A stretch of DNA of 64,000 bases from Bacillota bacterium (GCA_015059285.1 SVAS01000002.1:2572-66571); one strand, 5' to 3'. Shown: positions 8,087 through 25,169, numbered from the stretch's first letter. Numbers and translations: made by a program. Notes: a model not told the origin generated them from the letters alone.

Positions 8087-9022
8087 TTATATTTTCAATA
8101 TTTGCCCTGGATTTAATAAATTACTATCTAAATTATTTTTTTCTCTCAATTGGTCTATTGTTACATTAAATTGTTTGGCAATCTTGTATAAATTGTCCCC
8201 ACTTCTAACTACATATGTTATATCATTATTAGTTGGAATTTTTAATACTTGGCCTATATTTAATAAATTTGTGTTTAAACTATTAAATTGCATTAACTCT
8301 TCTACTGATAAACCATATGTACGAGCTATGGCATACAAATTATCTCCGCCCTTAACAACATAACTGATATAATTTTCCAAATTATCCTCCATACTCATCG
8401 GTATTAAAATAATTTGTCCTGGAGTAATAATTGAGGATTCTAAATTATTATATTCTATTAATTTATCAGTACTAATATTATTATTGCTAGCAATTCTATA
8501 CAAAGTATCCCCTAGTTTTACAGTATAAGATATATAATTATTATTAGGAATAATATTTTGTGTTACTGGTAGTTTTAATACCTGATTAATACTAATCAAA
8601 TTACTATTTAAATTATTAGTATTTTTAAGTTCTTCTACTGATACATTTAATTTTTTAGCTATACTCCAAAGACTATCTCCACTTTTTACTATGTATGTAT
8701 TATTTTGAGATTCTGAAGGATAAGAATAGCCTATATATTCTAAAATTGCTCTCACTACTGCTTCCGCATAGTTTTCATAATTATTTTTAAGTTGTTCTAT
8801 ATCATCCTTAGTACTATCTAAAAAGCCATATTCAATAATTACCGGCTCTGTAATCCCTGTATCTCTTAAAATATAATAATAATCTTTAGTAGGATTAGAT
8901 GGTAGTTTTTTTTGATATGCTTTACGAATATTTTGCCCTTCTTTACTTAATTCATTTAAGATAAGATTAGCTAGTGTATTGTTATTACGAAGAGCATAAA
9001 TTACCTCAGCACCATCGCCACC
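8087..9022 (-). pseudogene. C-terminal fragment of a split N-acetylmuramoyl-L-alanine amidase (Amidase_3 C-terminal half + 4 LysM repeats); intact only after excision of the 9023..17730 element
   Basis: The frame is open from 9022 downward with no start codon. It encodes GGDGAEVIYALRNNNTLANLILNEL...PVIIEYGFLDS...AEAVVRAILEY (second half of Amidase_3) followed by four LysM repeats (YTVKLGDTLYRIA etc.). It continues the N-terminal fragment at 17731..17993 exactly in frame. Confidence 0.65.
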
Positions 9023-9025
9023 TCA

Positions 9026-9044
9026 AGAGCCCATTTGCCACTAT
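9026..9044. repeat. Left terminal inverted repeat of intervening element (agagcCCATTTGCCACTat)
   Basis: Inverted match to 17711..17729, with 11-bp perfect core CATTTGCCACT. Confidence 0.6.
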
Positions 9045-9052
9045 TAATAAAT

Positions 9053-9853
9053 TTATTTAATCTCTACCTCTTCAAATTCTTTTAATTCACTATAAATACC
9101 TATATTATTTATTTTTGTTTGAGCTCCTTTATATAGAACTAATTTGTTTTCTATTATTTCACATTTCAATGTTAAATAATAATCATTGCTAGTATATACT
9201 ATTGCCTTATTTTCATCTATAATTCTATATTGATTCTTCAAAGATAAATTAAGAGTTGTTTTAATTGTTAGGCAAAAAATTATTGCTATAAAAATTAATG
9301 GAAGTGGTTTAAGAAAATCAAATAATATTTTTTGTTTACTCATATTATTCATATCATCTTGTTTATTTTCTCTAAACAAAAAATATGAAATAAGTACTTC
9401 TACAAAAACAAAAATAACAAAACTTACTAAACTTGATATAAAATTATTATTAGAATTTTCTATAAAAACAAAAAATACATTTAATGTAATTATTTTTAAA
9501 ATATTGCATAAATTGCTCTTACATAAATAATTTTTGTTTTTAAAGTTATCACTTAGTTGTTTATAATATATTAATATAATTCCAAAACAAAACACAAAAA
9601 TAACCGATAAACATAGTTCATATAAAAAATTTTGATCATGATATTTATACAAATTAATATTCAACCCATAATAATAAAAATATGCATTTGCTATAATATA
9701 TTCAACAAATTTAAACGCATTTAAAATTACTACACCAAGTGCAGTAATAACTGCAATGCTCCAAGCATAATTATTTTTAATTAACTCTACTAAAGTTTTT
9801 GTGAGATTTGTTTCCTTTTGTTTTAATTCTTTTTTTACCATAATAACCTCCAT
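9053..9853 (-). CDS. Polytopic membrane protein of unknown function (element cargo)
   Basis: 266 aa with at least 5 predicted TM helices and no recognisable motifs. It lies between the element end and the recombinase. Confidence 0.4.
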   Translation of the reverse strand: MEVIMVKKELKQKETNLTKTLVELIKNNYAWSIAVITALGVVILNAFKFVEYIIANAYFYYYGLNINLYKYHDQNFLYELCLSVIFVFCFGIILIYYKQLSDNFKNKNYLCKSNLCNILKIITLNVFFVFIENSNNNFISSLVSFVIFVFVEVLISYFLFRENKQDDMNNMSKQKILFDFLKPLPLIFIAIIFCLTIKTTLNLSLKNQYRIIDENKAIVYTSNDYYLTLKCEIIENKLVLYKGAQTKINNIGIYSELKEFEEVEIK

Positions 9854-9890
9854 AATTAAATCTATTGTTATATATTATAACACTATTTAA

Positions 9891-11567
9891 TTATAGATTT
9901 GATTTTTTTTGATATTTTTTTACATTTTTGTCATAAGGATTTCTTGATAAATTTCTATTCTCATACTTAAAATTTATTTCTGGTATAACCTCATATTTGA
10001 ATTTAATATTTATATTTCTATTTTCATCTATTACAATTTTATCTATTAATGCATCAATTAGTTCTTTTTTGGGTTTATTTAAATCTAATAATTTTTTGAT
10101 TTTTTTAGTATAATCTGGCAAAATATTTGCTTTATTTTTTATGTTTTCAATTTTATTCTTTTCTGTTTCAATACTATTATTAATTTTCTTTAATTTCTTT
10201 TCTGATTGTACAGATAGTTCCTTATAAAGTTCAGCTGTTATTATTCCATCACATCTATCATTATATAAATTAGATAATCTATTAATTATTTGTTCTTTTT
10301 CTAAAGTTAATTTATCAATAATTTTATCAATACTTTCTGTTTCTTTATGTATATTTTTAACAACTTCTCTATTTAATTCTTGCAAATCTAATTCATTAAT
10401 AAATATAGATACAGCTGATTCAAATTGTTCTAATAATTGTTGTTCTAAATAATCATATGGATAAAAATGAGAAGAACATCTACCCCTTTTTGGATCTCTA
10501 GAGTATCTATTACAATTAATTGACCAGTAATCAAGTTTCTTTCTATAATAAACTGATAATCTATTACCACACTCTTTGCAATATATTTTTCCTTCAAATA
10601 TTCTTTTTGGTCTAGTCGTCTTTAAAGCATAATTTCTAGAATGTCTATTCTTTAAAGTTTGTACATATTCAAATGTTTTTTTATCTACTAATGGTTCGTG
10701 AGTATTTTCTACTATTATCCATAAGCTTTTATCTAATGTTATTTTCTTCTTTGATTTATAATTAACTTTTGATTGAGTGTGTTGTACCATATCACCTGTA
10801 TAAATTCTATTTGTAAGAATCTTTTTTACTGAAGATATATTCCACTCATCTCTAATAATTATTCTTGAAGAAAATTTAATATTCTTATATTGACTTGGAG
10901 TTGGTATATTTTCATTATTAAGTCTAGTTGCTATTTCTGTAGGACCAATACCATCTACTCGCCATTTAAATATTTTTTTTACTGCAGGAGCTGTTTTAGG
11001 ATCTGGTATTAAATGTCCCTTATCTTCTGGATCTCTCATATATCCATAACTCGGTTTACTACCTATAAATTTTCCATTACGTCTCTTGTCATTAAGTACA
11101 TTTTTTATCTTAATAGAATTTTGTTTACTATAATAATCATTACAAGCAATAATAAATGTTGATGAATCATTGCTTGCTTGATTTTTAAAACTATCGTATG
11201 ATTCTAGAATTGAAATAAATCTAATACTGTTTTCTGGAAAAAATGTTTCTATGTAATATCCTGTCATAACATGATCTCTACCAAATCTTGATAAATCTTT
11301 AACTATCACACAATTAATTTTTTTCTTTTTAATATCTTCTAACATTTTTTGAAATCCGGGTCTATCAAAATTTGTTCCTGAATATCCATCATCAACATAT
11401 TCTCCAGATAAATTAAAATTATTATTTTTAACATAACTTTTTAATAATTCTTTTTGATTAATAACACTCTCACTATCAGATTCATATTTTTTATCTTTAT
11501 CTTCTTGAGATAACCTAATATATATTCCTACATTAAATTCTTGTTCAATCAAGTAATTATTGTACAT
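9891..11567 (-). CDS. Large serine recombinase (resolvase/invertase catalytic domain + recombinase domain + zinc ribbon/coiled coil)
   Basis: 558 aa. N-terminal VGIYIRLSQEDKD with catalytic Ser, ...VIVKDLSRFGRD. The large C-terminal extension with Cys cluster (CKECGNRL...CNRY...C) and coiled coil is typical of SpoIVCA/phiC31-type integrases. Confidence 0.85.
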   Translation of the reverse strand: MYNNYLIEQEFNVGIYIRLSQEDKDKKYESDSESVINQKELLKSYVKNNNFNLSGEYVDDGYSGTNFDRPGFQKMLEDIKKKKINCVIVKDLSRFGRDHVMTGYYIETFFPENSIRFISILESYDSFKNQASNDSSTFIIACNDYYSKQNSIKIKNVLNDKRRNGKFIGSKPSYGYMRDPEDKGHLIPDPKTAPAVKKIFKWRVDGIGPTEIATRLNNENIPTPSQYKNIKFSSRIIIRDEWNISSVKKILTNRIYTGDMVQHTQSKVNYKSKKKITLDKSLWIIVENTHEPLVDKKTFEYVQTLKNRHSRNYALKTTRPKRIFEGKIYCKECGNRLSVYYRKKLDYWSINCNRYSRDPKRGRCSSHFYPYDYLEQQLLEQFESAVSIFINELDLQELNREVVKNIHKETESIDKIIDKLTLEKEQIINRLSNLYNDRCDGIITAELYKELSVQSEKKLKKINNSIETEKNKIENIKNKANILPDYTKKIKKLLDLNKPKKELIDALIDKIVIDENRNINIKFKYEVIPEINFKYENRNLSRNPYDKNVKKYQKKSNL

Positions 11568-12323
11568 TTAATCCTCCTTTTCTTTTACTTGATTGGATAT
11601 TAAGACAATTTAATAATAACGCGCTATTTAGAAAAATACAGCCCATTATTTTCACTTTCTTCATTTTCTTTTGTTATCTCTTCAATAAGATATTTTAATA
11701 TTAAATCTTTAAAAGTTATATTATTATTCATAGCAACACCTATTTAAAGTTATGTTTTGTTTATTTACTTTATTATTTTTTAAACACATTAAAATCCCCC
11801 TTTTTAATTATTAAAAAGTCCCTATGCTTTGGACATAAGAACTATTTTTCAGCTGTAAGTATTACTATAAGATTGTCATAAACATAATCTTTTAATAGAT
11901 TTTCTAGAACAGATTGAATTGTAATTTTTTTATTTTTAGTATTTGTCTAAATGCACCATTAAGATTAGAATCAATAACAAATTTAATTTGAATATTTTTT
12001 TCATTGTTCATTTTTTCATCTCCTTTCTTTAAATTTTGGTATCAGATTTATGTACCTAAAATTGCTAATTTTCAAATCTTGTTTCAATTAAAAAAAGCAG
12101 GATAACCCCTGTTTACAAACAACTCACCAGCGGTGAGTTTACCATTATTTTATAAGGCATTAGTAAAATTGTAAGTATATACATTTTAGTAAAGTGTTAT
12201 ACAATCGTACACACTTTTTCGCGTTTTTTTGAGCTTGTTTTCGTACCTAAAAATATAACTTTTTTAATATTTTTGGTACTTTAATTTTTATATTATTTAT
12301 TTTTAAAGGGGGTATGGTAGAAT

Positions 12324-12527
12324 ATGAAAAAAGCACTGACTTTATTTTTAAAATCAGCGCTAGATACACTCTTATGTACAGTTATTTCATATTCTACCGT
12401 AATTATAACACGTATTTTCCTTATATCAATATGGAACTTTTGTCTGAAAAAATGTCTGACGAAAACTCTAAGAGCCATTGAAAATACTGGTATTTTTTTA
12501 ATAGGTAAAAGCTTATCTAAAAAGTGA
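12324..12527 (+). CDS. Small hydrophobic protein (67 aa) with very strong RBS; function unknown (toxin-like or regulatory?)
   Basis: AAAGGGGGT RBS 7 nt upstream of ATG. Cys-rich hydrophobic peptide inside the element's 1-kb non-coding stretch. Weakly supported. Confidence 0.2.
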   Translation: MKKALTLFLKSALDTLLCTVISYSTVIITRIFLISIWNFCLKKCLTKTLRAIENTGIFLIGKSLSKK

Positions 12528-12563
12528 TTGACAGGGGTAGGTATTTTTTTGTTTTAAATTTTT

Positions 12564-13655
12564 TTATATTCCTGATTTTCTTCTATTACATTCTCTGCAT
12601 AACATTTGACAATTTTCTGGTGTTGTTTTACCACCTAAATGCCATGGAGTTATATGATCAGCTTCCATTTCCTCTATTTCAAAATGTTCTTTACAATTAG
12701 AACAAATACCTTTTTGTCTTTGATAAGCTTCTCTTTTTTGATTATCTGTAAAAGACCTAATACTTAAATATTTTTCTTTGCCAGTTATCAAATAATAATA
12801 TATCCCTGATTTTTTAGTTACATCATCATCTTTTAATAATTTTTGAATTTGCATTTCTAGTTTATCAGAATTATATTTTTGATCTTTATATTGGTTAAAT
12901 AAATTGCCCCAATCTAACCCTTTCATCTCTTTTCGATAAACTGGAAATAACCTCTTAACCCAATCTATAACATCTTGATAATACATCCATAATTCATTGG
13001 CATCATTATCATGTTGATGTTCTGACATATAGTCTTCAATTGTTTTACTATCTTTAGCAGAAATCCAATATAAAACTTTCTCTAAATAATCTTGTCTAAT
13101 AGTTGAACCACTCATGTATTTTTCACCAATTTGATAGGCAGGACAAGCAGTTTTACTAAAATGTCTTTTAGCATCAGTTAACCATTCTCCAGTATAAATT
13201 GCATTTCTTAATTCTTGATCTGTTAATTTTTCTCCAGCAATATTTATTATCTTAAACCAATCTTGTATTTCTTTATCATTACCTTTGCAAAAATAAATTA
13301 ATAATTTATAATTTAAAATATGATTTCTTTCAGTCTCTGTTAAATTGTGGAAAGCTCTACTATTGATAGAATAACTACCATCTACATATTCACAAATACT
13401 TATTGTTCTTTGTTGTCCATCTAATACTTCATATGTACCATCATCATTGCATATCCAGTACATAACATTCAACGGAAAATCACTATTAACACTATTAATA
13501 ACTTCATTTCTTTGTTTTTCATTATAAACAAATTCTCTTTGATATTTAGGTCTTATATTTAATTTACCACCATATCCTACAACACCATTCTCATCATCAT
13601 TAACATAATCTTTCACAACCTCACTAACAGGTATTTCTTTTAATTTAATTTCCAT
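12564..13655 (-). CDS. DUF262 (ParB-like nuclease, DGQQR motif) + C-terminal HNH endonuclease; GmrSD-like restriction nuclease
   Basis: YQREFVY ... LDGQQRTISI in the N-terminal DUF262. C-terminus DHITPWHLGGKTTPENCQMLCRECNRRK is a canonical HNH. 11-nt overlap with the upstream methyltransferase gene suggests an operon. Confidence 0.75.
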   Translation of the reverse strand: MEIKLKEIPVSEVVKDYVNDDENGVVGYGGKLNIRPKYQREFVYNEKQRNEVINSVNSDFPLNVMYWICNDDGTYEVLDGQQRTISICEYVDGSYSINSRAFHNLTETERNHILNYKLLIYFCKGNDKEIQDWFKIINIAGEKLTDQELRNAIYTGEWLTDAKRHFSKTACPAYQIGEKYMSGSTIRQDYLEKVLYWISAKDSKTIEDYMSEHQHDNDANELWMYYQDVIDWVKRLFPVYRKEMKGLDWGNLFNQYKDQKYNSDKLEMQIQKLLKDDDVTKKSGIYYYLITGKEKYLSIRSFTDNQKREAYQRQKGICSNCKEHFEIEEMEADHITPWHLGGKTTPENCQMLCRECNRRKSGI

Positions 13656-14751
13656 AATTTTTCTCCTCTTCTGTTTTTATTAATATTATTCTTGCATAAG
13701 GGACAACAGGATGCCCCTGTGAATCTAGCATATATAAATCTCCATCCACAGCTCCTTTGTGTTGAACTTCTTTACGATATTTTTTATGTTCCGGTTTATA
13801 GGGCTTTACTCCTATCTCCAAACCAGAGTTTGATATTCCTAAACCTAACAAATTAAATTGTTGAGGATTGTATTTATCAAGAAAAGTAATAGGAACTCCC
13901 ATATATCCATTGTAATCTTTAGGAATTTCTGTATATGAATTAATATTTATTGCATCAAAATTTTCATATTTTTGATATTTTTCTTTTGAATAAACTTCAT
14001 ATAATATCAATCTTTCATTATGCCTTTTCACTGGTAAATTCGTAAACCAACAAGATGTAGCAACTCTTACCATTTTTTTACCATCAATAATTTTATGGAA
14101 TTTTTCTGTACTTTCTGGAACAAAGAAATACATACCAACATTAAAATTTGTATATCCCGTTCTTATATTATCTTCTTTAAATAATTTAAAAATTTCTTTG
14201 TATGATAATGCATTTGTGTTGCCCATAATTATAAATTGTTTATTATATTCAATTAATTGTGCAACATACTCTCTAAATAAACTAAAAGGAGGATTGGTTA
14301 CAACAATATCAGATTCTTTTAATAATTCTATACATTCATCTGATCTAAAATCACCATCTTCTTTTAAATATGTTAATGTGTTTTTTTTGTTTTTAATTAA
14401 ATATTCAACATCCAACAAATCAGTAGCACCATCTTCATTATTGTCATCAACTTCTGTTATTTCTATCTTATAAGCTTTCTTATTGTCAGATAAAAGTAAT
14501 TGTGTATTTGCTACTGGCGATGTTGCATAACAAGTTGCGATTAGCTTTTTTAAGCCAAGAAAATTAAAATTCATTGCAAAGTATTTAAAAAAATTACTTT
14601 CATATGGATCATCACAATTACAAAATACAACTTTATCTTTAAATTCTTTCCTATAATTATTTAATTCTTTTTCTATATCTGATAATTGAGTGTAAAATTC
14701 ATCATTTTTTGCTTTATTTGCATTCCTTAAATCCTTATTTTTATTTGCCAT
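13645..14751 (-). CDS. N6-adenine DNA methyltransferase (NPPF motif IV; resembles EcoRI-methylase-like family)
   Basis: VVTNPPFSLFREY catalytic motif. N-terminal NDEFYTQ...VVFCNCDDP...SNFFKYF resembles M.EcoRI-family proteins (from memory, unverified). Confidence 0.65.
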   Translation of the reverse strand: MANKNKDLRNANKAKNDEFYTQLSDIEKELNNYRKEFKDKVVFCNCDDPYESNFFKYFAMNFNFLGLKKLIATCYATSPVANTQLLLSDNKKAYKIEITEVDDNNEDGATDLLDVEYLIKNKKNTLTYLKEDGDFRSDECIELLKESDIVVTNPPFSLFREYVAQLIEYNKQFIIMGNTNALSYKEIFKLFKEDNIRTGYTNFNVGMYFFVPESTEKFHKIIDGKKMVRVATSCWFTNLPVKRHNERLILYEVYSKEKYQKYENFDAININSYTEIPKDYNGYMGVPITFLDKYNPQQFNLLGLGISNSGLEIGVKPYKPEHKKYRKEVQHKGAVDGDLYMLDSQGHPVVPYARIILIKTEEEKNYGN

Positions 14752-14860
14752 ACTCGCACTTCCTAATAATTAAATTATATCATAAAAAAGCATCTTTTTT
14801 TGAATTTTGGTAATATTTTCCTTATAAAAATTAAATTTTAGCAAATAAAAAGAAAGAATT

Positions 14861-15715
14861 TTATCTTTCTTGTCTATTTTTTGATAATTCACTCACGATT
14901 AAATCTTCAGAATGCAAATTGTTATTTTTTCCTAATAATAAATTTTCATAAAACTTAACCAAATAACTTTTATCTTCTTTTACACCTAATTTATTATTAA
15001 AATAATTACTTCTAACTAAGGCATTTCTAAAATACACAGATTTCTCTTTAAATAAACTATTATCTACATTATACCCTAAACTAATTAAATATTTTTCTAT
15101 AAATAAAGCTGTTGTTCTTGTATTACCTTCTCTGAATGGATGTACTTGCCATATATTAGAAGAAAATTTAGTTATATTATTTATAACTTCCACTATATTC
15201 ATATCTTTATAATTTTTTTCTTTTTCTAAAGATATATCATATTCCAAAGATTCTTCTAAAGTTCTACAATCTCCATATGCTACAGAATCTTTATTTAAAA
15301 TAATTTCCGGTTTAGAAAAATCAACTACTCTAAAATTACCAGCAAACTCATAAACATCTTGAAATAGATATTTATGTACATATTTTAAATAATCTACAGA
15401 CAATTCAAATTTATCTTCTTGTAATAATTCTACAATTCTGGTTGAAACAAAATCACATTCTAATTCATTATAGTTTACTTCATTTTTCTTTTCTTTTTCT
15501 ACATAATAATTTCTTAATTCTTCTTTTACTTGATCTAAACTTAATTTACCAACAATATTTTCTTCTAAAAGTTCTTCAAGTTGTTTAGAAGGTTTTAAGT
15601 TATCAACTTCTTGCAAACCAATAGCCATATCCCATTGAATCTGTTTTATATAATTATTAGTTTGATATACTTCTTCATATTCATTAACACTTGAATCAAA
15701 TTCTTTTTCATTCAT
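14861..15715 (-). CDS. Fic/DOC family protein (putative AMPylator/toxin)
   Basis: HPFREGNTRTTALF matches the Fic active-site motif HPFx[DE]GNGRxxR. Confidence 0.75.
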   Translation of the reverse strand: MNEKEFDSSVNEYEEVYQTNNYIKQIQWDMAIGLQEVDNLKPSKQLEELLEENIVGKLSLDQVKEELRNYYVEKEKKNEVNYNELECDFVSTRIVELLQEDKFELSVDYLKYVHKYLFQDVYEFAGNFRVVDFSKPEIILNKDSVAYGDCRTLEESLEYDISLEKEKNYKDMNIVEVINNITKFSSNIWQVHPFREGNTRTTALFIEKYLISLGYNVDNSLFKEKSVYFRNALVRSNYFNNKLGVKEDKSYLVKFYENLLLGKNNNLHSEDLIVSELSKNRQER

Positions 15716-15779
15716 AAGATAACCTCCTTAATTAAAAAATTATATTTCTAATATCACTTTAACATTAAAAATAAATATT

Positions 15780-17633
15780 TTAAATTTTTCTTACAGAATC
15801 ATATGCAATTGATATTTTCTCAAATATATTATCTGTTTCATTAATTAATATTTTTTTAACTTTATCTATATTTTTTATAAAATTAAACAAAGAGTATGTA
15901 TTTTTTTCGGAATCTCTATATACATCTATATAATCAATATAAAATGAAATTGTATCATTTACAATATCGTACAAAAAACCTACAGTTGTTTCCATTTGCA
16001 AATTTTTATTTCCATGAAATTGTTTGTTTCTTAAATAATACGAATTCATTAACAATTCTTTTGCTTCATTATGAAACTTTTGAAAATATAATTCGTATTG
16101 AGATACTAGTTTTATAACTTGTTCATATTTCCAAGTCAAAAAATCACAATTATTTGGATTTCTTTTATCAAAATTTAAAAAAATATTTTCTACAAAATTA
16201 TTACTTAATTTATTAAACCCTTTATACATTTTATTAATTTGCACTGCGGTTAAATATATATATCCTGATATCATTCTATCTGCTACCAAATAACTTCCAT
16301 ATTCCTCTAATGATTTAGAAATATTATCCCCTGCATTTCTAAATAAAGTTTCCAAAGCAAACCAAGTATTAGTAAACTTAGTTAATGTTGATTCTGAATT
16401 CTTATAATACGGCAACAATTGGACTGCCTCATCTATAATTTTATTGATATCATTATCACTATTATCAATAATATATCTTTTAAATACGTCTGAATACGCA
16501 ATTCTATCTTGTGTTAATGGTTTAAAAATATCATCATAAAAATTATAATAATTTATAAATTTTTTCTGCTCTTTGTGTTCTATTAAAAGATAATCTCCTA
16601 CAGCTCCCACTTTTATTCCAGAATATAGCATTGAACCAATAAACGGTTGAAGTACTTTCTGTTTAAATTTACGAATTGCTTGCCATATATCTTTACTATA
16701 AATTTCTGATGATAAATAATAATTATTATCATCCTTTATTTTTAAATTACTGATAATTTCTGTTAAAATTTTTTTATTATTAATTTTTGAGTCCTCTAAA
16801 AATTTAACTAATCCAGACTTACTATATATAATATAATTATTATTTCCAGATTGTTTTAATGCATTTAATAATTTTTCATCAAAATCTTTATCCATTTTTA
16901 TAAATATCGTATACTTATTGTCTGTACCATATTGTTCTGCAAACTTAATAAACATATCACTAAAAGAAGAAAAAGACTTTCTCTTAAAAAAATTTCTATA
17001 CGCATCACGTATTATTTTTTTAATTTCAAAAATACTTATTCCTATATAATCTATCAATAAAGCAAAATATTCATTAGACAATTCTGCTATTTTATCAAAA
17101 TTATCATATTTAATCTCTTTATTTGTTACTAAATCATATAAGTTATCTGATATAGTATCAAAATACTTATTATTAATTAAACTTATATAAATTAATTTTA
17201 AATTTTCTATTAAATTTAAATCATCATTTTCATTAATAAATTGAATATATCTTTTTTTATGATCTTCATTTATAAATTTATTGGTTTTTATAGCATCTCT
17301 TATATAATCTATTTTGTATTTTGGAATTTTAGCCATTTTTTCTTTAGTTTCAAATTGTTTATTTATATCCTCATAATAAGAAATTATTTTATTTATTTTT
17401 CCTAATAATGAATTGTTCAAGTTTCTACTTCCCAACATAGAAATACTACTTAAATTTTCTATAATATAGTTTAAAAAGAACATCATATTTCTATTCTTTA
17501 ATCCAATTTTTTCAAAATCATTATTACAGACAATATTTTTACTAGAAAAAAGCAATTGTTTAATAAATCTTTCTTTATTTTCCAAAACCTTACTACTTGT
17601 TAACAAATACTCTTCCTTAACCATATTACACAT
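15780..17633 (-). CDS. Large (617 aa) uncharacterised protein with C-terminal HEPN-like Rx4H motif (LRNKQFHG); putative abortive-infection/defense effector
   Basis: No NTPase motifs. The C-terminal helical region ...TWFALETLFRNAGD...YYLRNKQFHGNKN is suggestive of a HEPN RNase fold. Located in the defense cargo. Confidence 0.35.
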   Translation of the reverse strand: MCNMVKEEYLLTSSKVLENKERFIKQLLFSSKNIVCNNDFEKIGLKNRNMMFFLNYIIENLSSISMLGSRNLNNSLLGKINKIISYYEDINKQFETKEKMAKIPKYKIDYIRDAIKTNKFINEDHKKRYIQFINENDDLNLIENLKLIYISLINNKYFDTISDNLYDLVTNKEIKYDNFDKIAELSNEYFALLIDYIGISIFEIKKIIRDAYRNFFKRKSFSSFSDMFIKFAEQYGTDNKYTIFIKMDKDFDEKLLNALKQSGNNNYIIYSKSGLVKFLEDSKINNKKILTEIISNLKIKDDNNYYLSSEIYSKDIWQAIRKFKQKVLQPFIGSMLYSGIKVGAVGDYLLIEHKEQKKFINYYNFYDDIFKPLTQDRIAYSDVFKRYIIDNSDNDINKIIDEAVQLLPYYKNSESTLTKFTNTWFALETLFRNAGDNISKSLEEYGSYLVADRMISGYIYLTAVQINKMYKGFNKLSNNFVENIFLNFDKRNPNNCDFLTWKYEQVIKLVSQYELYFQKFHNEAKELLMNSYYLRNKQFHGNKNLQMETTVGFLYDIVNDTISFYIDYIDVYRDSEKNTYSLFNFIKNIDKVKKILINETDNIFEKISIAYDSVRKI

Positions 17634-17710
17634 CCTTTATACATCTATATTATATCATAACAAGATATATTTTTATAATTAAATATAGATCTTAATACCC
17701 AATCCTCAGT

Positions 17711-17729
17711 TACAGTGGCAAATGCACTC
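17711..17729. repeat. Right terminal inverted repeat of intervening element (tacAGTGGCAAATGcactc)
   Basis: Reverse complement of the left IR core CATTTGCCACT. Confidence 0.6.
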
Positions 17730-17730
17730 C

Positions 17731-17993
17731 CCACCTCCCGCATTTATGTGATTAGATATAACTATAACATCACTATTATTCCCATAGGCATCCAAAACTC
17801 TTCTAACTCTTTCATTAGGATTAACAGTTTCATCCATCATTCTAGTCATTTTTACTGGTATCCCCAATTCATTTAAGCGATTATAAATATAATTGGATAT
17901 TTTTAAAGTTAATTCTTTTTCTATTATTCCGCCACCTACAGCACCACCGTCAGTTCCTCCATGTCCCGCATCAATTACAATTTTATAATTCAT
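17731..17993 (-). pseudogene. N-terminal fragment of the split Amidase_3 gene (MNYKIVIDAGHGG...SNHINAGGG), terminated by element-derived codons ECICHCN*
   Basis: DAGHGG, EK..L.I, MTR, and SNHINAGGG motifs of the MurNAc-LAA (Amidase_3) N-terminal half. The reading frame runs into the element and stops after 7 codons. Confidence 0.65.
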
Positions 17994-18068: not shown

Positions 18069-19184
18069 TTATTCAATACTCTTAGTTAATTCAACTTTCA
18101 CATCTTTAATTTTACCACTACGGTAATACTTAATTTCTACTTTATCACCAACTTGATGTTTATAAAGCAAGAAACGGAAATGAGCAATGCTTTTAATTTC
18201 AGTTCCATCAAATTGTAAAAGTATATCTCCTTTTTTTAAGCCTGCATTAAAAGCAGGGCTTCCTTTTTCTACTTCAACAACAGCAATACCATTAGTAACA
18301 TCATCTGGAATAATTATATTGTTTCTATATAAAGCAAAAGTATCGCTTATATCTAACATACTAACACCAAGTAATGGTCTTTGAACTTCTTCTCCAGCTT
18401 CTAACTGATCTACAGTAGCCATAACTAATTCAATCGGAATAGCAAATCCCATACCTTCTATTTCATCTTTTACTAATTTTAAAGAATTAACCCCAATTAC
18501 TTCACCATTGATATTACAAAGAGGTCCGCCACTATTCCCCGGATTAATCGCTGCATCAGTTTGAAGAACTTGCATCATAAATTCACCATTAGATAAACTA
18601 ACTTCTACAGTTCTATCTTTTCCAGATAAGATACCTTTAGTAACTGTACCCATATACTCTAGACCAAGTGGGGAACCAACTGTAAATAATGTATCCCCTA
18701 GTTCTAACGCATCACTATTTCCAATTTCAGCGACTGAAATAACTGCATCAGAAGAAATTGATAAAACTGCTATATCAGCATATGTGTCACTCCCTAATAC
18801 TGATGCCTCTACTGTTTGTCCAGAAGTATTAGTTATCTGAACATTATCAGCATCCTCTATAACATGATTATTAGTTATAATGTATCCATTTTTATCTTCT
18901 TTTTTGTAAACAAAACCTGTCCCACTACTAATTGTTTTACCATTTTTGTAAGATTCTATATACATAACAGCATCATACACTTTATCTAGAGAACTTTTAA
19001 TAGTATCTGTTTCTGTAATTGAAACTTCTTTAATAGTTCTTTCAGTCAACTCATTTTCAGGTATATATTTTATAACTACAATTGTACCTGTTACTCCTAC
19101 AAAAAGAGTTATAATAATTGTTAATAAATAAATTAATTTTTCTCTCATAAGTCCTCCTAAGCTAAATCTACTATATCGTGCCAA
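18069..19184 (-). CDS. htrA: HtrA/DegP-family serine protease (trypsin-like domain + PDZ), membrane-anchored
   Basis: N-terminal TM, catalytic TDAAINPGNSGGPL serine motif, C-terminal PDZ. Confidence 0.8.
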   Translation of the reverse strand: MARYSRFSLGGLMREKLIYLLTIIITLFVGVTGTIVVIKYIPENELTERTIKEVSITETDTIKSSLDKVYDAVMYIESYKNGKTISSGTGFVYKKEDKNGYIITNNHVIEDADNVQITNTSGQTVEASVLGSDTYADIAVLSISSDAVISVAEIGNSDALELGDTLFTVGSPLGLEYMGTVTKGILSGKDRTVEVSLSNGEFMMQVLQTDAAINPGNSGGPLCNINGEVIGVNSLKLVKDEIEGMGFAIPIELVMATVDQLEAGEEVQRPLLGVSMLDISDTFALYRNNIIIPDDVTNGIAVVEVEKGSPAFNAGLKKGDILLQFDGTEIKSIAHFRFLLYKHQVGDKVEIKYYRSGKIKDVKVELTKSIE

Positions 19185-20089
19185 TTATCTGGAAATCCAA
19201 TTCTATTTAAAATTCTATTTAATGGCACAACATCTACAATTCCATCTAAATGATCTACTTCATAACTAACTTCTCCTATTAAGTCATGGAATTCTTCTTC
19301 ACTTATCATTTGCTTTAACATGATAATAAGTGCGAATAAATCATTTTTACCAAAGATATATTCACCATCTGTCTTATCAATATCTAACATACGATGATAC
19401 TTATTATCTGGTATTTGTCTTTGCGTTCTATAATCGTATAAAATATCTTCATGAGCACATATATTTCTATAGTTTGCTAGTAAAGATATATATATTCCAA
19501 GTGTTTCCGCATCCATCTTATATAATTCAGCAATAAACATCCTATCATCTGATTTTAGTATGCTATAAAGTTCTGAAATAATTCCTAAAGATAAAACTTT
19601 TACTAAAATCCACATTGGAATATAACCATAATTATCAATATAATGCATTGTCGCAGTATGTTTACGACCATTCACTCTAATTTGCCTTTTCATCTTATTT
19701 AAAACATCTTTGACTTGACGAGTTTTAATAGCATCTTGAGTAAAATTTTTAGGATCTAAATAATCTTTTTCTTTATAACCATATTTTCTTGATAATTCAT
19801 AACTAATAATAGATTTTAAATTATTTTCTACTACTAATATATACTTAAACATAATATTTCTAACTTTGCGATCAAATAAAAACATACCATATAATTCTTC
19901 AAAAGTGGTTCCCTTAATAAAAGTATTGTCTTTATCTGAGCGCATAAAAAGATGACGATATCCACTAACAAAGAAGTAGTTTTCTCTAATAAGAACTTCT
20001 TTTGCTTTTCTAATATCGTTTATCATTAACCCCTTAGATGATAGAATTTCAATTTGTTCGTCTAACGTTTTAAATATCTTACTTTTCAT
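19157..20089 (-). CDS. Abi_2 (AbiD/AbiF-like) abortive infection family protein
   Basis: N-terminus MKSKIFKTLDEQIEILSSKGLMI...YFFVSGYRHLF matches Abi_2 family conserved start. 310 aa. Confidence 0.6.
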   Translation of the reverse strand: MKSKIFKTLDEQIEILSSKGLMINDIRKAKEVLIRENYFFVSGYRHLFMRSDKDNTFIKGTTFEELYGMFLFDRKVRNIMFKYILVVENNLKSIISYELSRKYGYKEKDYLDPKNFTQDAIKTRQVKDVLNKMKRQIRVNGRKHTATMHYIDNYGYIPMWILVKVLSLGIISELYSILKSDDRMFIAELYKMDAETLGIYISLLANYRNICAHEDILYDYRTQRQIPDNKYHRMLDIDKTDGEYIFGKNDLFALIIMLKQMISEEEFHDLIGEVSYEVDHLDGIVDVVPLNRILNRIGFPDNWHDIVDLA

Positions 20090-21631: not shown

Positions 21632-22693
21632 CTAGATGACAGATTTTGAGATTTCGATAACTGGGCGCACACCGTAGTAGAAACCATCGTTGACGTTGAA
21701 GTAGTCAACGTAACCGTCGTAGCCCACGTACCAAGCGCTGCCCGCATAGTCCGCATAAGCAGAGCTTAGCCAGAAGCCATATGGTGGGTTGGATAAATTT
21801 CCATACAACCATGCTGGACATCCAACGTCATATTCTACACATCCTAACAAATCTATTGCTTCATCATGTGTTAACATTCGAGCTCTTGCATTTGTTCTTT
21901 CTATTGCGTATTGTCCTTGATCGTCTGCTAATGTATATGTTTTTGCTGGGATGTTTGTCCAACTACTTGTTTTACTTTCTAAGTAATTTAACGCTGTTAG
22001 TGGACCTTTTTCGTTTGTTGAACAATAATCTCCGGCTTCTCCACATCCATAGTCTTTTTCACTAATCCATGCTACTGTTTCTTCATCTACGTTTCTATCC
22101 ATGATTAATGTTAATGTCCCTGTTGTAGCATCGTCTTTTACTACGTAGAATGTCTTCGCGTCTTCTTTATCGTTTACTTTAACTTGTACTGCTATTCCTG
22201 CTTTTATCGCATCTTCACTACATGTTTCGTTTGCATTTGTGATACATGTTGCTGTTGATGTAATTATTGGGTTTGCTGCTTTTTTATATTCACAGCTTCC
22301 TTCATATTTTGTTGTTGTGATTGCACTTTCGCTTGTTGCTTTTGTTACACAATGTGCTCCATTATTTACAGCAATAGCAACTTTTCCATCTTTTGTTACT
22401 GTTATTTTTCCATTTGTTGGAAGTGCCCCCTTAACTTCTAGTTTGTTTTCTCCAACAAATTCTCCGTTTGTTATTGTAAACTCTACATCTGAAGCCATTC
22501 CATTTTCTAATAGTGAACTTGCATAATACATCTCTCCTGCATCAATAAGTCCATATGCAGTATCTTCAAATGCACTTTCTCTTGCACTACTGATAATGTT
22601 CATTATTACTGGTACTGCAATAAGCGCTATAATTGCTAGTATCACTATTACTGCTAGTAACTCGATCAATGTAAACCCTTTATCTTTTCTCAT
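21632..22693 (-). CDS. DGR target protein: type IV pilin-like (class III signal peptide MRKDKG|FTLIELLAVIVIL, Glu+5) N-terminus with C-terminal C-type-lectin-fold variable domain
   Basis: Canonical prepilin cleavage and methylation motif. C-terminal ...AWLYGNLSNPPYGFWLSSAYADYAGSAWYVGYDGYVDYFNVNDGFYYGVRPVI carries the VR. Start moved to the ATG at 22693, 5 nt after GGTGGTGA (track used an upstream GTG). Confidence 0.8.
   Translation of the reverse strand: MRKDKGFTLIELLAVIVILAIIALIAVPVIMNIISSARESAFEDTAYGLIDAGEMYYASSLLENGMASDVEFTITNGEFVGENKLEVKGALPTNGKITVTKDGKVAIAVNNGAHCVTKATSESAITTTKYEGSCEYKKAANPIITSTATCITNANETCSEDAIKAGIAVQVKVNDKEDAKTFYVVKDDATTGTLTLIMDRNVDEETVAWISEKDYGCGEAGDYCSTNEKGPLTALNYLESKTSSWTNIPAKTYTLADDQGQYAIERTNARARMLTHDEAIDLLGCVEYDVGCPAWLYGNLSNPPYGFWLSSAYADYAGSAWYVGYDGYVDYFNVNDGFYYGVRPVIEISKSVI
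21661..21765 (-). repeat. DGR variable region (VR) at 3' end of target gene
   Basis: 105-bp region about 80% identical to TR 23054..23158. 19 of 21 differences fall at TR adenine positions (AAC/AAT codons in TR vs TAC/GGC/TTC/GAC/AGC/GAT etc. in VR). The 3' boundary is a GC-rich CTGGGCGCACACCG block (IMH-like) in a 27% GC context. Confidence 0.8.
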
Positions 22694-23053
22694 ATCTATC
22701 ACCACCTATCGTTTCATTCTATTATCAGTTTAGCAGTTTTTTATTATTTTCTTTTGTTGTATTACTATTTGTTTTATACTTTTTTCTTTTTTCGACTTTT
22801 TTCTCTCTCTTTTTTACTGCTACTCTGACTTTATTTATTATACATTTTTATCTATCTTCAATTTGTTTTATAACATAAATATTTCAACAAAAAAATCGTA
22901 GTGAACAGACTACTTCATTTTCAATTTCTTTACTAGTGAATTCATCATCTACGATATAGTATTCCTTAAAGTTACCTTTAAGAGGAAAAACACTTGTTTT
23001 CTTTAGCTTTTATTTACTAACCTTAGTCCAGTAAAACGTAGTTTTAAAGAAAT

Positions 23054-23158
23054 CTGGGCGCACACCGTAGTTGTTGTCATTGTTGACGTTGTTGTTGTTA
23101 ACGTTACCGTCGTTGTTCACGTTCCAAGCGTTGTTAGCATTGTCCGCATTAGCAGAGC
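23054..23158 (-). repeat. DGR template region (TR), AAC-rich (13 AAC + 3 AAT codons)
   Basis: Lies in the non-coding gap between the RT gene and the target. On the coding (minus) strand it reads ...AAT GCG GAC AAT GCT AAC AAC GCT TGG AAC GTG AAC AAC GAC GGT AAC GTT AAC AAC AAC AAC GTC AAC AAT GAC AAC AAC TAC GGT GTG CGC CCA G. Confidence 0.8.
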
Positions 23159-23240
23159 AACAATAAACAAAAACCCGAGTAAATACATTACAGCATTTTC
23201 CCTATAATATATAACTAATATAGTTATATATGAAGTTATA

Positions 23241-24443
23241 TTAAGTTTTATACATTATTTTTTTATCTATTATCATAACTTCTGAACCAATAAGGTCATA
23301 TTTTTTTTCATATTTATTTAAAGTATTAGCGACTAGTTTTTTAGTATGCCCATAACTTAAATGTCCCAAATAACTACCCTTGACTTGTAGAAATTTTTCA
23401 TATGGAATAACATTTTGTTCAACTAAACTATTTAACTTTTTAATTTTTCTTTTAAATCTTTTTTTTGTTTGATTTTTTACTTTCATAATCACTTTATTGT
23501 TTTTTATCATATATTTAAAACCTAAGAATTCAAAAGGTTCTTTATGATTATAAATGCGTGTTTTTTTGTTTAACTCTAGTTTATATTTATCAAGTATTTT
23601 TTCTATTTCTTGTAAACAATATTCTAAATATTTTTTATCTTCATGAATTAAAATTCCATCATCCATATATCTTATATAATACTTAATTTTTAATTTTTCT
23701 TTTATATAGTGATCTAATTCATTTAAATATGTAATTGCGAAAACTTGACTAGACATATTTCCTATTGGAAGCCCTTTCCCTTTTTTGTATTCAGGAAGGC
23801 TATTTATTTCTTCAATTAGTTTTTCTTTATCCTGGGCCTTACTATTTAAAATTTTATTGATTTCATGCTGTTTTACTTTTTGTATAGTCTTATTAACATA
23901 TTCTTCATTAGTACTATCAATTATTAAATCAAATATGTTAATTACTTCCTTATCTTTGATTTTTGTTCTAACAAGTTTTTTTATAATATCATGATCTAAA
24001 TTAAAAAAATATTTAGAAATATCAAATTTTAAAACATAAAAAGGTTTGTTTTTTACTTCATTTAAATATTTTTTTAAAAGTTGTATTCCATAATGCGTTC
24101 CTTTTCCTTTTCTGGTTGCTATATTTTGATCAATTAATGATTTATCAAAAACATTTATCATAAAATATTCACTTACAACATGATTAATAATTTTATCAAT
24201 AATATTTTGTGACATTATTAATCTAAGTTTTGGTTCTTTTATTAAAAATACATTATATCTGCCTGGTACATACTCTCTACGTTCTAGAAGCGTTTTAATA
24301 TAAATCATATTAGATACATAATAATTATCAAATTTTTCTAATTTCTTTTTATTTTTAGTATTAATTCTAACTCTATGGTCATATACTTTTTGAATTTTTT
24401 GGATATCAATTATCTGATTGTATAGATTGTTTTTCCTTTTCAT
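23241..24443 (-). CDS. DGR reverse transcriptase
   Basis: 400 aa. RT motifs including LPIGNMSSQ (the DGR-specific I/LGxxxSQ motif 4) and IRYMDDGIL (YxDD). Adjacent to the TR. Confidence 0.9.
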   Translation of the reverse strand: MKRKNNLYNQIIDIQKIQKVYDHRVRINTKNKKKLEKFDNYYVSNMIYIKTLLERREYVPGRYNVFLIKEPKLRLIMSQNIIDKIINHVVSEYFMINVFDKSLIDQNIATRKGKGTHYGIQLLKKYLNEVKNKPFYVLKFDISKYFFNLDHDIIKKLVRTKIKDKEVINIFDLIIDSTNEEYVNKTIQKVKQHEINKILNSKAQDKEKLIEEINSLPEYKKGKGLPIGNMSSQVFAITYLNELDHYIKEKLKIKYYIRYMDDGILIHEDKKYLEYCLQEIEKILDKYKLELNKKTRIYNHKEPFEFLGFKYMIKNNKVIMKVKNQTKKRFKRKIKKLNSLVEQNVIPYEKFLQVKGSYLGHLSYGHTKKLVANTLNKYEKKYDLIGSEVMIIDKKIMYKT

Positions 24444-24762
24444 TTTTCATCCAAGTATTTGTCATTTTATTAATTTCTAATAAATGTCTTCCTACTACTT
24501 CATACTTTTTAAAACTTATTAATTTCTTATCTAAACTTACTTTTATATAATAATTGATCATGCGTATTCTAACTATTAAATCTTTCATATATTTATCATT
24601 TTTATGGACATTTGCTTTATAAACTAATTCCAATAAATCATAACAACTATCCATAATTTTGTTTTTTAATATTACTTCTGTATGTGGATAATTACAAATA
24701 GCCTTTTCAATATATTCAATAGTCTTTTTTATTCGTGTTGCAATTAATAATTTATCTTGCAC
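24406..24762 (-). CDS. avd: Accessory variability determinant (Avd-like four-helix-bundle protein)
   Basis: 118-aa basic helical protein. It overlaps the RT start by 38 nt. Its position and size match Avd. Sequence similarity to Avd was not verified. Confidence 0.55.
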   Translation of the reverse strand: MQDKLLIATRIKKTIEYIEKAICNYPHTEVILKNKIMDSCYDLLELVYKANVHKNDKYMKDLIVRIRMINYYIKVSLDKKLISFKKYEVVGRHLLEINKMTNTWMKNEKEKQSIQSDN

Positions 24763-25169
24763 AAAAGTTCCTCAATTTCATTTAAGACTGTTTTTAAATT
24801 AGAATTACCTAAATTAGCTTTTAACACTTCATATATTTTATTAATCCTATTTACAAAAATATCATAGTTATCTAATCTAAAACTATATTTACTATAAGAG
24901 TTATTCTTATATTTATATTTCTGTATATTATCATCATTAACAATCAGATAATTTATATGTTTGTTTTCTAATGCTTTTTCAATTTTTGAAAGACTTGTAA
25001 TAGGAAAACCAACTTTAATTAAGTTGGTTGTTTCTTTTATTTTATAATTAAATAATCTATTCATAACAATAGCATCATCATTTAAAGATAAATAGAAGCT
25101 CCCACATTTGATAAGAATTATGTAATCCTTATAAATTTCTTTATAAGTATTGTATTTTTCTTTTAACAC
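24744..25169 (-). CDS. Standalone MutS domain I (mismatch-binding domain)-like protein, first gene of the DGR operon
   Basis: YKEIYKDYIILIKCGSFYLSLNDDAIVMNRLFNYKI...KVGFPITSLSKIEKALENKHINYLIVND aligns with the MutS N-terminus (Y..iK..yPd.lLffr.GdFYElf.dDA...s.lL.i.Lt...PmaGvP.ha...Yl.kLv..G..VaIceQ). The Glu of the Phe-x-Glu motif is replaced (FYL). 19-nt overlap with the avd start. Confidence 0.5.
   Translation of the reverse strand: MLKEKYNTYKEIYKDYIILIKCGSFYLSLNDDAIVMNRLFNYKIKETTNLIKVGFPITSLSKIEKALENKHINYLIVNDDNIQKYKYKNNSYSKYSFRLDNYDIFVNRINKIYEVLKANLGNSNLKTVLNEIEELLCKINY

Follow-up and report, generated by a model that had tools for sequence, protein, structure and literature searches.

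Two exchangeable defence slots around a Fic gene in a serine-recombinase element of a Bacillota bacterium, and a candidate new defence protein

Introduction

Gene-intervening elements have been described in spore-forming bacteria, where large serine recombinases excise them; skin lies in sigK, SPbeta in spsM and gin in gerE; gin also carries a restriction-modification (RM) system (PMC5595907). Among Fic proteins, Fic2 of Campylobacter fetus is toxic in E. coli in a histidine-dependent manner and disturbs ribosome assembly or subunit joining (PMC5651007). Here we describe a recombinase-bearing element that splits a cell-wall amidase gene and carries an RM pair, a Fic gene and an orphan gene for a 617-aa protein, referred to as P617. 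The element lies in a 64,000-nucleotide stretch of DNA from a Bacillota bacterium (GCA_015059285.1, SVAS01000002.1:2572-66571), referred to as the window, in which positions are counted from the first letter. Loci and contigs of relatives used for comparison are labelled L001 to L134.

The four cargo genes, at 12564-17633, take up 5.07 kb of the element, which is about 8.7 kb long. The initial annotation had taken this segment to be the defence cargo of an intervening element, a description that the analysis upholds. We propose, with a probability of roughly 70%, that the cargo consists of three independent modules: the RM pair, a Fic gene that belongs to the element backbone, and P617 as a candidate new defence protein.

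Results

The cargo genes and the first terminator-like site downstream of them are as follows, with slots 1 and 2 denoting the variable regions on either side of the Fic gene.

12564-13655, minus strand: restriction nuclease, 363 aa, slot 2; Pfam GmrSD_N (PF03235, 7.5e-20) and HNH (PF01844, 2e-14); PADLOC REase_II PDLC03418 (4.4e-139)
13645-14751, minus strand: EcoRI-family N6-adenine DNA methyltransferase, 368 aa, upstream gene of the RM pair, slot 2; Pfam EcoRI_methylase (3.9e-128); PADLOC MTase_II PDLC03297 (1.4e-106)
14861-15715, minus strand: Fic protein, 284 aa, backbone gene between both slots; Pfam Fic (PF02661, 4.9e-11); PADLOC PDC-S72 (2e-79)
15780-17633, minus strand: P617, orphan protein of 617 aa, slot 1; no family match; AlphaFold2 model available; ratio of nonsynonymous to synonymous substitution (dN/dS) about 0.08
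12332-12361, minus strand: strong intrinsic-terminator-like hairpin, 13-bp stem followed by a T-run, 3' of the nuclease gene

All four open reading frames (ORFs) were found again in the ORF listing, co-oriented and with the motifs and overlap that had been annotated. The methyltransferase stop and the nuclease start overlap by 11 nt (13645-13655), and 64 nt separate Fic from P617. The translations contain NPPF at methyltransferase residue 153, DGQQR at nuclease residue 79, the HNH core DH...N...N at nuclease residues 333-357, HPFREGNTRTTA at Fic residue 192 and LRNKQFHG at P617 residues 534-541. No terminator-like hairpin was seen between any of the four genes. A promoter scan was uninformative (65 sites against 60 expected, at a GC content of 22-27%), an Rfam scan of the element gave no matches, and a search for internal repeats within it returned AT-rich noise only.

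The insert is an element of about 8.7 kb, at about 9025-17730, with a large serine recombinase, and it splits an Amidase_3-LysM gene. Its size follows from the split amidase, the two GAGGTGG cores and the terminal inverted repeats.

17706-17993, minus strand: amidase 5' fragment, 95 aa; Pfam Amidase_3 (3.8e-19); aligns to residues 11-96 of the intact L096 amidase
8087-9022, minus strand: amidase 3' remainder (GGDGAEVIYALRN..., then four LysM repeats); tblastn with residues 94-429 of the intact L096 amidase, 48% identity, 3e-94; LysM x4
17731-17737, minus strand: attL crossover core GAGGTGG, read directly; same core as attR
9018-9024, minus strand: attR crossover core GAGGTGG, read directly; same core as attL
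17714-17724, minus strand: left terminal inverted repeat CATTTGCCACT; its reverse complement stands without mismatch at 9032-9042
9032-9042, minus strand: right terminal inverted repeat AGTGGCAAATG, partner of the left repeat
9891-11567, minus strand: large serine recombinase, 558 aa, with Resolvase, Recombinase and Zn_ribbon_recom domains; 75-92% identity to the recombinases of sister elements
11869-12208, no strand assigned: non-coding part of the backbone, upstream of the recombinase gene; identity with L115/L116 and L095, 73-80%
9053-9853, minus strand: predicted membrane protein of 266 aa, encoded at the end of the element; no match in Pfam, PADLOC, NCBIfam or PHROGs

The insertion point lies within the amidase codons, between NAGGG and DGAEV. 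The 5' fragment ends in ...SNHINAGGG and then runs into element DNA; on the other side, the frame starting at 9022 reads GGDGAEVIY... and continues into the four LysM repeats. Both halves abut perfectly on the uninterrupted 452-aa amidase of L096, a related metagenomic genome, whose intact site reads ...GCTGGGGGTGGTGATGGTGCTGAGG. Because the halves align back-to-back on this protein, precise excision would rebuild a shared reading frame, with the junction ...AATGCGGGAGGTGGCGATGGTGCT... The inverted repeats are perfect over 11 bp and lie 6-7 nt inside each junction. The element also holds about 1 kb of partly conserved non-coding DNA, and in L095 and L121 other small genes replace the membrane protein.

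Two more terminator-like hairpins, at 12111-12098 and 11843-11817, were noted in the region of the non-coding block; the corresponding part of sister elements contains an HTH_36 gene and an ORF of 32 aa. The block may be the site of an excision control or directionality factor. Separately, a different Amidase_3 gene in another genome, L124 (183-2646), is adjoined by the gene for another large serine recombinase, of 632 aa, which is unrelated to the present one (31% identical). Such elements may repeatedly target cell-wall amidase genes.

The sister elements, sampled as about six distinct types rather than in a systematic survey, share one layout: the amidase 5' fragment, variable genes, Fic, variable RM genes, then (HTH_36) and the serine recombinase, and finally the LysM half of the amidase. 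DNA conservation detected by blastn is limited to the attL region (to 17679), the block 15744-14828 around Fic (83%), 12208-11869 and the recombinase. From the limits of these blocks, slot 1 extends over about 17678-15745 and slot 2 over about 14827-12209. In the window and in L095, slot 1 holds P617. The same slot is filled by a PD-Lambda-4_A homologue (2e-193) in L115, by an LmuB-like AAA_13 protein with a partner, a Lamassu-like pair, in L117, by DUF7017, RnlA and RnlB in L121-L125, and by a second Fic together with QatA, QatB and QatC in L129-L134. Slot 2 is an RM system in most of the sister elements sampled. Apart from the window's pair, its contents include Bpu10I with a C5 methyltransferase, two C5 methyltransferases with McrBC-like genes, a C5 methyltransferase with a 378-aa protein, and a Methylase_S (specificity-subunit) fragment with two unknown genes. 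The same position in homologous elements is thus filled by different known defence systems, which makes it a defence hotspot.

One of these sister elements (RnlAB, Fic, two C5 methyltransferases with McrBC, and recombinase) was found in identical form in L121-L125, in at least five chromosomal backgrounds whose amidase fragments are 60-74% identical to that of the window. The occurrence of an identical element beside diverged amidase fragments indicates recent horizontal spread between species.

The initial annotation had suggested that Fic and the large protein could be a single abortive-infection or toxin module. In such a module Fic might, for example, modify or control P617, or one might neutralise the other. 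The arrangement in the window is compatible with this, the two genes being adjacent and co-oriented with no terminator-like site in the 64-nt gap and neither having a visible small antitoxin gene. A Fic remnant also follows the P617 homologue of L095, and in L111 and L100 the P617 homologue has an unrelated Fic-domain gene no more than about 3 kb away. However, most P617 homologues lack the window's Fic, which is not a recurrent neighbour of theirs, and no Fic is adjacent to those in L001, L003, L005, L014, L096, L097, L108 and L113. Conversely, Fic homologues 83-87% identical to that of the window are kept in many host backgrounds beside PD-Lambda-4, Qat, RnlAB or Lamassu-like genes instead of P617. 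The DNA homology blocks break exactly between the two genes. In L095, P617 is 89% identical within host flanks of 48-56% identity; slot 2 there holds an RM system with a C5 methyltransferase, and P617 is intact while Fic has decayed to the remnant. Fic and P617 are not a conserved two-gene module. The single-module proposal is largely refuted by these gene neighbourhoods, and we consider it improbable.

In the Fic-less loci L096 and L097, the homology around P617 extends no more than about 30 nt beyond either end of the ORF, which indicates that P617 moves as a single-gene cassette. About a dozen contexts of P617 homologues were inspected. Most of those beyond the ordinary ones considered below are defence islands, with the following contents near P617:

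L001: UvrD/MazG-like genes, an Eco57I-like methyltransferase and DarTG
L005: Abi_alpha, a two-methyltransferase NgoFVII RM system and RnlAB
L014: an N6-methyltransferase and a helicase set
L108: DUF4420-AIPR-C5 methyltransferase genes, a MazG-like gene and an SLFN-type helicase
L111: M78-Fic, an AAA_11 helicase, DUF2726 and HsdM
L113: an AAA_11/DUF2726 helicase, a C5 methyltransferase with NOV_C and a MazG-like gene

A 104-aa MazG-like gene (L001, 7678-7992; L113, 7677-7991; L108, 5021-5335) accompanies the more distant P617 homologues, 9-10 nt upstream in two contexts and nearby in the third. In some members of the family, a nucleotide pyrophosphohydrolase may be the second half of a two-gene unit; the P617 gene of the window lacks such a neighbour.

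Slot position and gene neighbourhood both point to an anti-phage role for P617, since slot 1 of the sister elements holds PD-Lambda-4, QatABC, DUF7017-RnlAB or a Lamassu-like ATPase pair. The alternative is that P617 has another selfish or accessory function, such as anti-defence, inter-element competition or regulation of element maintenance, and that its conserved arginine and histidine are structural or serve other chemistry. P617 resembles no known defence protein and no HEPN profile, and four of the roughly twelve contexts (L003, L096, L097 and L100) lie among ordinary genes with no recognisable defence island. In the window and in L095 no gene lies between attL and P617, a position that an element function would also suit. 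In contrast, validated defence systems take its slot in the sister elements, and the majority of the other contexts are defence islands; P617 is also found far from any recombinase, so that it is not needed for element mobility. We regard a role outside phage defence as unlikely, yet worth keeping in view.

The large protein had initially been called uncharacterised, and this description stands: P617 matched no housekeeping family and gave no credible match in Pfam, PADLOC, NCBIfam or PHROGs. None of 23 aligned family members had a significant Pfam match at E values up to 10, and a sequence-profile search of the PDB returned nothing. A word-indexed search returned 46 clusters, all at least 46% identical and all from Bacillota and Erysipelotrichales metagenome-assembled genomes, and an exhaustive phmmer search of 1.84 billion representatives gave 21 matches, all full-length members or fragments of the same family. 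Among homologues 86-100% identical, dN/dS is 0.07-0.09, and P617 is a real gene under strong purifying selection.

AlphaFold2, run on the family alignment, gave a model with a predicted local distance difference test score (pLDDT) of 85 and a predicted template modelling score (pTM) of 0.86. The predicted domains are helical (1-235), alpha/beta (239-363) and again helical (395-617). Conservation rises from 0.61 in the N-terminal domain to 0.73 in the C-terminal domain, with cores above 0.8. The C-terminal domain contains the motif R535-N-K-Q-F-H540-G, whose R535 and H540 do not vary among 23 sequences with identities as low as 45%; apart from H540, none of the protein's four histidines is conserved. 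When P617 was shuffled, Rx4H appeared in 10% and RNx3H in about 1% of the shuffles. The Rx4H match by itself is therefore weak, and its weight comes from the invariance. We hypothesise that R535 and H540 are a HEPN-type catalytic dyad, which the motif would fit. A candidate PD-(D/E)xK site in the central domain was dropped, since its E-x-K is not conserved in the alignment.

The second module is the RM pair in slot 2. Both proteins are matched over their full length by REBASE-derived PADLOC models, the REase_II match spanning residues 1-361 of the 363 in the nuclease. The nuclease has a DUF262/ParB-like N-terminal domain with DGQQR, an uncharacterised middle and a C-terminal HNH domain with CxxC...CxxC. 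In the family alignment, D333, H334, N348, N357 and the four cysteines are invariant. The family is large, with more than 8000 clusters returned, the best 120 of them all at least 70% identical. Linkage was assessed in 80 genome loci with nuclease relatives, searched with the window proteins and ranging over Bacillota, Bacteroidota, Proteobacteria, phyla of the candidate phyla radiation (CPR) and DPANN archaea. An EcoRI-family methyltransferase match of at least 200 aa is present in 75 of the 80, directly upstream in about 71, where it often abuts or overlaps the nuclease gene, and at 0.7-3.7 kb in the other four. In the five remaining loci the contigs end less than 900 nt upstream of the nuclease; no nuclease with enough upstream sequence lacked a methylase among the 80. 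Plasmid records also carry the pair, annotated as 'DUF262 domain-containing protein' and 'adenine-specific methyltransferase EcoRI family protein'. The RM-like pairing proposed in the initial annotation is thus borne out. Judged from these sequences, the two genes appear to be a true RM operon, Type II-like and of a known kind, and its architecture of EcoRI-type methylase and DUF262-HNH nuclease is widespread and biochemically unexplored.

The initial annotation had further called the nuclease GmrSD-type. This holds for the N-terminal domain, which is Pfam GmrSD_N with DGQQR. It does not hold for the C-terminus, which matches the PF01844 HNH family and gave no Pfam match to DUF1524, the GmrD domain. 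By its domain content, the nuclease does not belong to the GmrSD family, its likeness being confined to DUF262. That domain, together with weak PADLOC matches of the nuclease to NsnA, PD-T4-2_A and mREase_IV, might suggest a Type IV modification-dependent nuclease resembling GmrSD, BrxU or SspE, next to an unrelated or orphan methyltransferase. Against this stand the 11-nt gene overlap, the linkage in every locus with enough sequence across phyla, the HNH domain and the full-length match to a Type II model; moreover, a nuclease dependent on N6-methyladenine would be self-destructive beside an N6-adenine methylase. We consider the Type IV interpretation highly improbable. For the RM operon, the obligatory methyltransferase partner points to cutting that is blocked by methylation rather than dependent on modification.

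The third module is the Fic gene. The PDC-S72 match covers profile positions 7-276 of 377, the C-terminal 100 or so positions being absent; we found nothing specific on PDC-S72 in the literature. The closest solved relatives are VbhT and the Fic domains of Bartonella Bep proteins, at about 1e-11. The loop HPFREGNTRTTA departs from the AMPylation consensus HxFx(D/E)GNGRxxR at two positions (G8 to T and R12 to A), and HPFREGNTRTxA is identical to the loop of C. fetus Fic2. No small antitoxin ORF lies beside the gene among the listed ORFs. Residues 31-68 have VbhA as their top, sub-threshold Pfam match, a hint of a fused, degenerate inhibitor at the N-terminus. Because Fic is constant between two variable slots, its role is suggested to lie in the backbone itself, as an addiction or defence function, in anchoring the exchange of cassettes through homologous recombination, or in the two together.

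Several other features were noted in the window. A probable diversity-generating retroelement lies at 21632-24771. Its two direct-repeat copies of 110 nt (21656-21765 and 23049-23158) are 79% identical; through them the 3' end of a prepilin-type (N_methyl) gene is connected with a template region, next to which lie genes for bAvd and a reverse transcriptase, both annotated on the identical contig L008. An Abi_2/AbiD gene (19157-20089; PADLOC AbiD, 6.5e-61) overlaps the start of a gene for an HtrA-like protease (18069-19184). This pair is syntenic in related species at 45-57% identity (L095, L096, L122 and L124), and Abi_2/AbiD therefore looks like a vertically inherited chromosomal gene and not like mobile defence cargo. 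Over the whole window, TCGA, GATC and CATG are markedly under-represented (observed/expected ratios of 0.36, 0.55 and 0.59, respectively), perhaps because of other restriction systems in the lineage.

Discussion

We propose that the element carries an RM pair, a backbone Fic and P617 as functionally separate units. For the RM pair, the EcoRI-family methyltransferase presumably N6-methylates adenine at its recognition site in host DNA, and its translationally coupled partner, the DUF262-HNH enzyme, presumably cleaves that site in unmethylated DNA through the HNH active site. As in GmrSD, BrxU and SspE, activation is probably controlled by the ParB-like DGQQR domain, a probable nucleotide binder. 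The Fic protein, with its VbhT/Bep-like domain and degenerate loop, is probably restrained by the fused, degenerate VbhA-like segment at its N-terminus. It may act alone as a candidate defence or addiction toxin, in keeping with its PADLOC listing. P617 would be a new anti-phage protein of the abortive-infection type, in which the variable N-terminal and central domains would sense infection and release the conserved C-terminal helical effector, and the R535/H540 pair would cleave RNA in HEPN fashion.

A number of results weigh against this proposal or against one of its parts, in addition to the ordinary contexts of P617 and the limited scope of the slot census mentioned above. For P617, Foldseek searches of PDB and BFVD with the whole model and with the separately predicted C-terminal domain found no relatives. 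Comparison by hhalign with small Abi_2 and RnlA alignments gave probabilities below 1%, a weak negative given how shallow these alignments are. None of the Pfam HEPN families matched the P617 members significantly, one member touching HEPN_Swt1 at E 0.63. The HEPN label of the initial annotation thus keeps its invariant RNx3H motif and lacks a profile or fold match. For Fic, the VbhA match is sub-threshold (E 0.0034; 17.8 bits against a cut-off of 25.9), VbhA was not recovered in a PDB search with the N-terminus, and no regular-expression match to the inhibitory (S/T)xxxE(G/N) motif was found in the protein. For the RM pair, the window and the host DNA of the 80 carriers (713 kb) were scanned for avoided palindromes that might reveal the recognition site, and no signal emerged; the scan showed just generic depletion of GATC, CATG and GGCC, with AATT and GAATTC not depleted. 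No characterised DUF262-HNH Type II enzyme was found in the literature. The sequences themselves show the gene structure, motifs, operon linkage, element ends, slot architecture, orphan status and purifying selection; what we infer for the four proteins is their enzymatic activities, the site recognised by the RM pair, a defence phenotype and the HEPN mechanism.

A more far-reaching proposal is that P617 founds a new single-gene anti-phage family of the abortive-infection kind, acting as an R-N-x3-H ribonuclease that is either HEPN-like or convergent, and that these elements are a hotspot with two slots in which further unknown systems can be sought. We put this forward tentatively, as a possibility at somewhat less than even odds.

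Defence genes are now found mainly via their position in hotspots. The present elements form a compact and very abundant family in gut and rumen Bacillota, with the amidase fragment, Fic and the recombinase as anchors. These anchors and the two exchangeable slots provide a simple rule for harvesting candidate systems from metagenomes, and the rule nominates P617, a protein with a confidently predicted fold and no detectable relatives. The two-slot architecture and the nomination of P617 are what the analysis adds. It also flags a widespread RM architecture for which we found no described enzymology or recognition site.

Compared with the gene-intervening elements of spore formers, the present element is likewise small and non-phage, with a large serine recombinase and RM cargo, and it splits a cell-envelope gene inside a run of codons, with a short core and inverted-repeat ends. 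It differs in its target, an Amidase_3-LysM gene, and in having a fixed backbone with two exchangeable defence slots around Fic. The P2/P4 hotspots, hotspot 5 of the SXT integrative and conjugative element (ICE) and prophage cargo slots similarly have conserved flanks that enclose interchangeable, unrelated defence systems. In those cases, however, the carrier is a phage, a satellite or an ICE, whereas here it is an element of 8-12 kb with a recombinase only, and it has two slots that apparently differ in content, slot 2 being filled mostly by RM systems and slot 1 by systems of other kinds.

The RM pair is most similar to the Type II systems of REBASE and PADLOC with methyltransferases of the M.EcoRI family (PF13651), with which it shares full-length hidden Markov model (HMM) matches, an overlapping operon of methyltransferase followed by nuclease, motif IV NPPF, and a pairing conserved in hundreds of genomes and plasmids. 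R.EcoRI itself has a PD-(D/E)xK fold, in contrast to the ParB-like DUF262, a putative nucleoside triphosphate-binding domain, and the HNH domain found here. GmrSD, BrxU and SspE resemble the nuclease in their N-terminal DUF262 with DGQQR, their C-terminal His-Me finger nuclease, their single chain and their occurrence in defence islands. The present nuclease differs in having a classical HNH with a zinc ribbon in place of DUF1524, in being half the size, and in always being paired with a methyltransferase, whereas Type IV enzymes act alone on modified DNA.

The Fic protein shares its loop with C. fetus Fic2 and has its closest structures in VbhT and Bep, along with a weak VbhA-like segment. 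Unlike in VbhT-VbhA, a class I Fic toxin-antitoxin of Bartonella, the putative inhibitor is fused in cis and is without S/TxxxE(G/N), with no separate antitoxin gene. The present gene also differs from those of Fic2 and VbhT in belonging to the conserved backbone of a mobile element, and PADLOC lists its family as a candidate system (PDC-S72). Finally, P617 resembles the HEPN ribonucleases of abortive infection (Abi), such as Abi_2/AbiD, RnlA, AbiU2 and AbiV, in its predicted all-alpha C-terminal domain, its stand-alone gene in defence islands and its invariant R-N-x3-H, the commonest HEPN variant; it also shares its slot with RnlA in sister elements. It differs from them in lacking similarity by HMM, profile-profile or Foldseek comparison, and in having N-terminal and central domains without known relatives.

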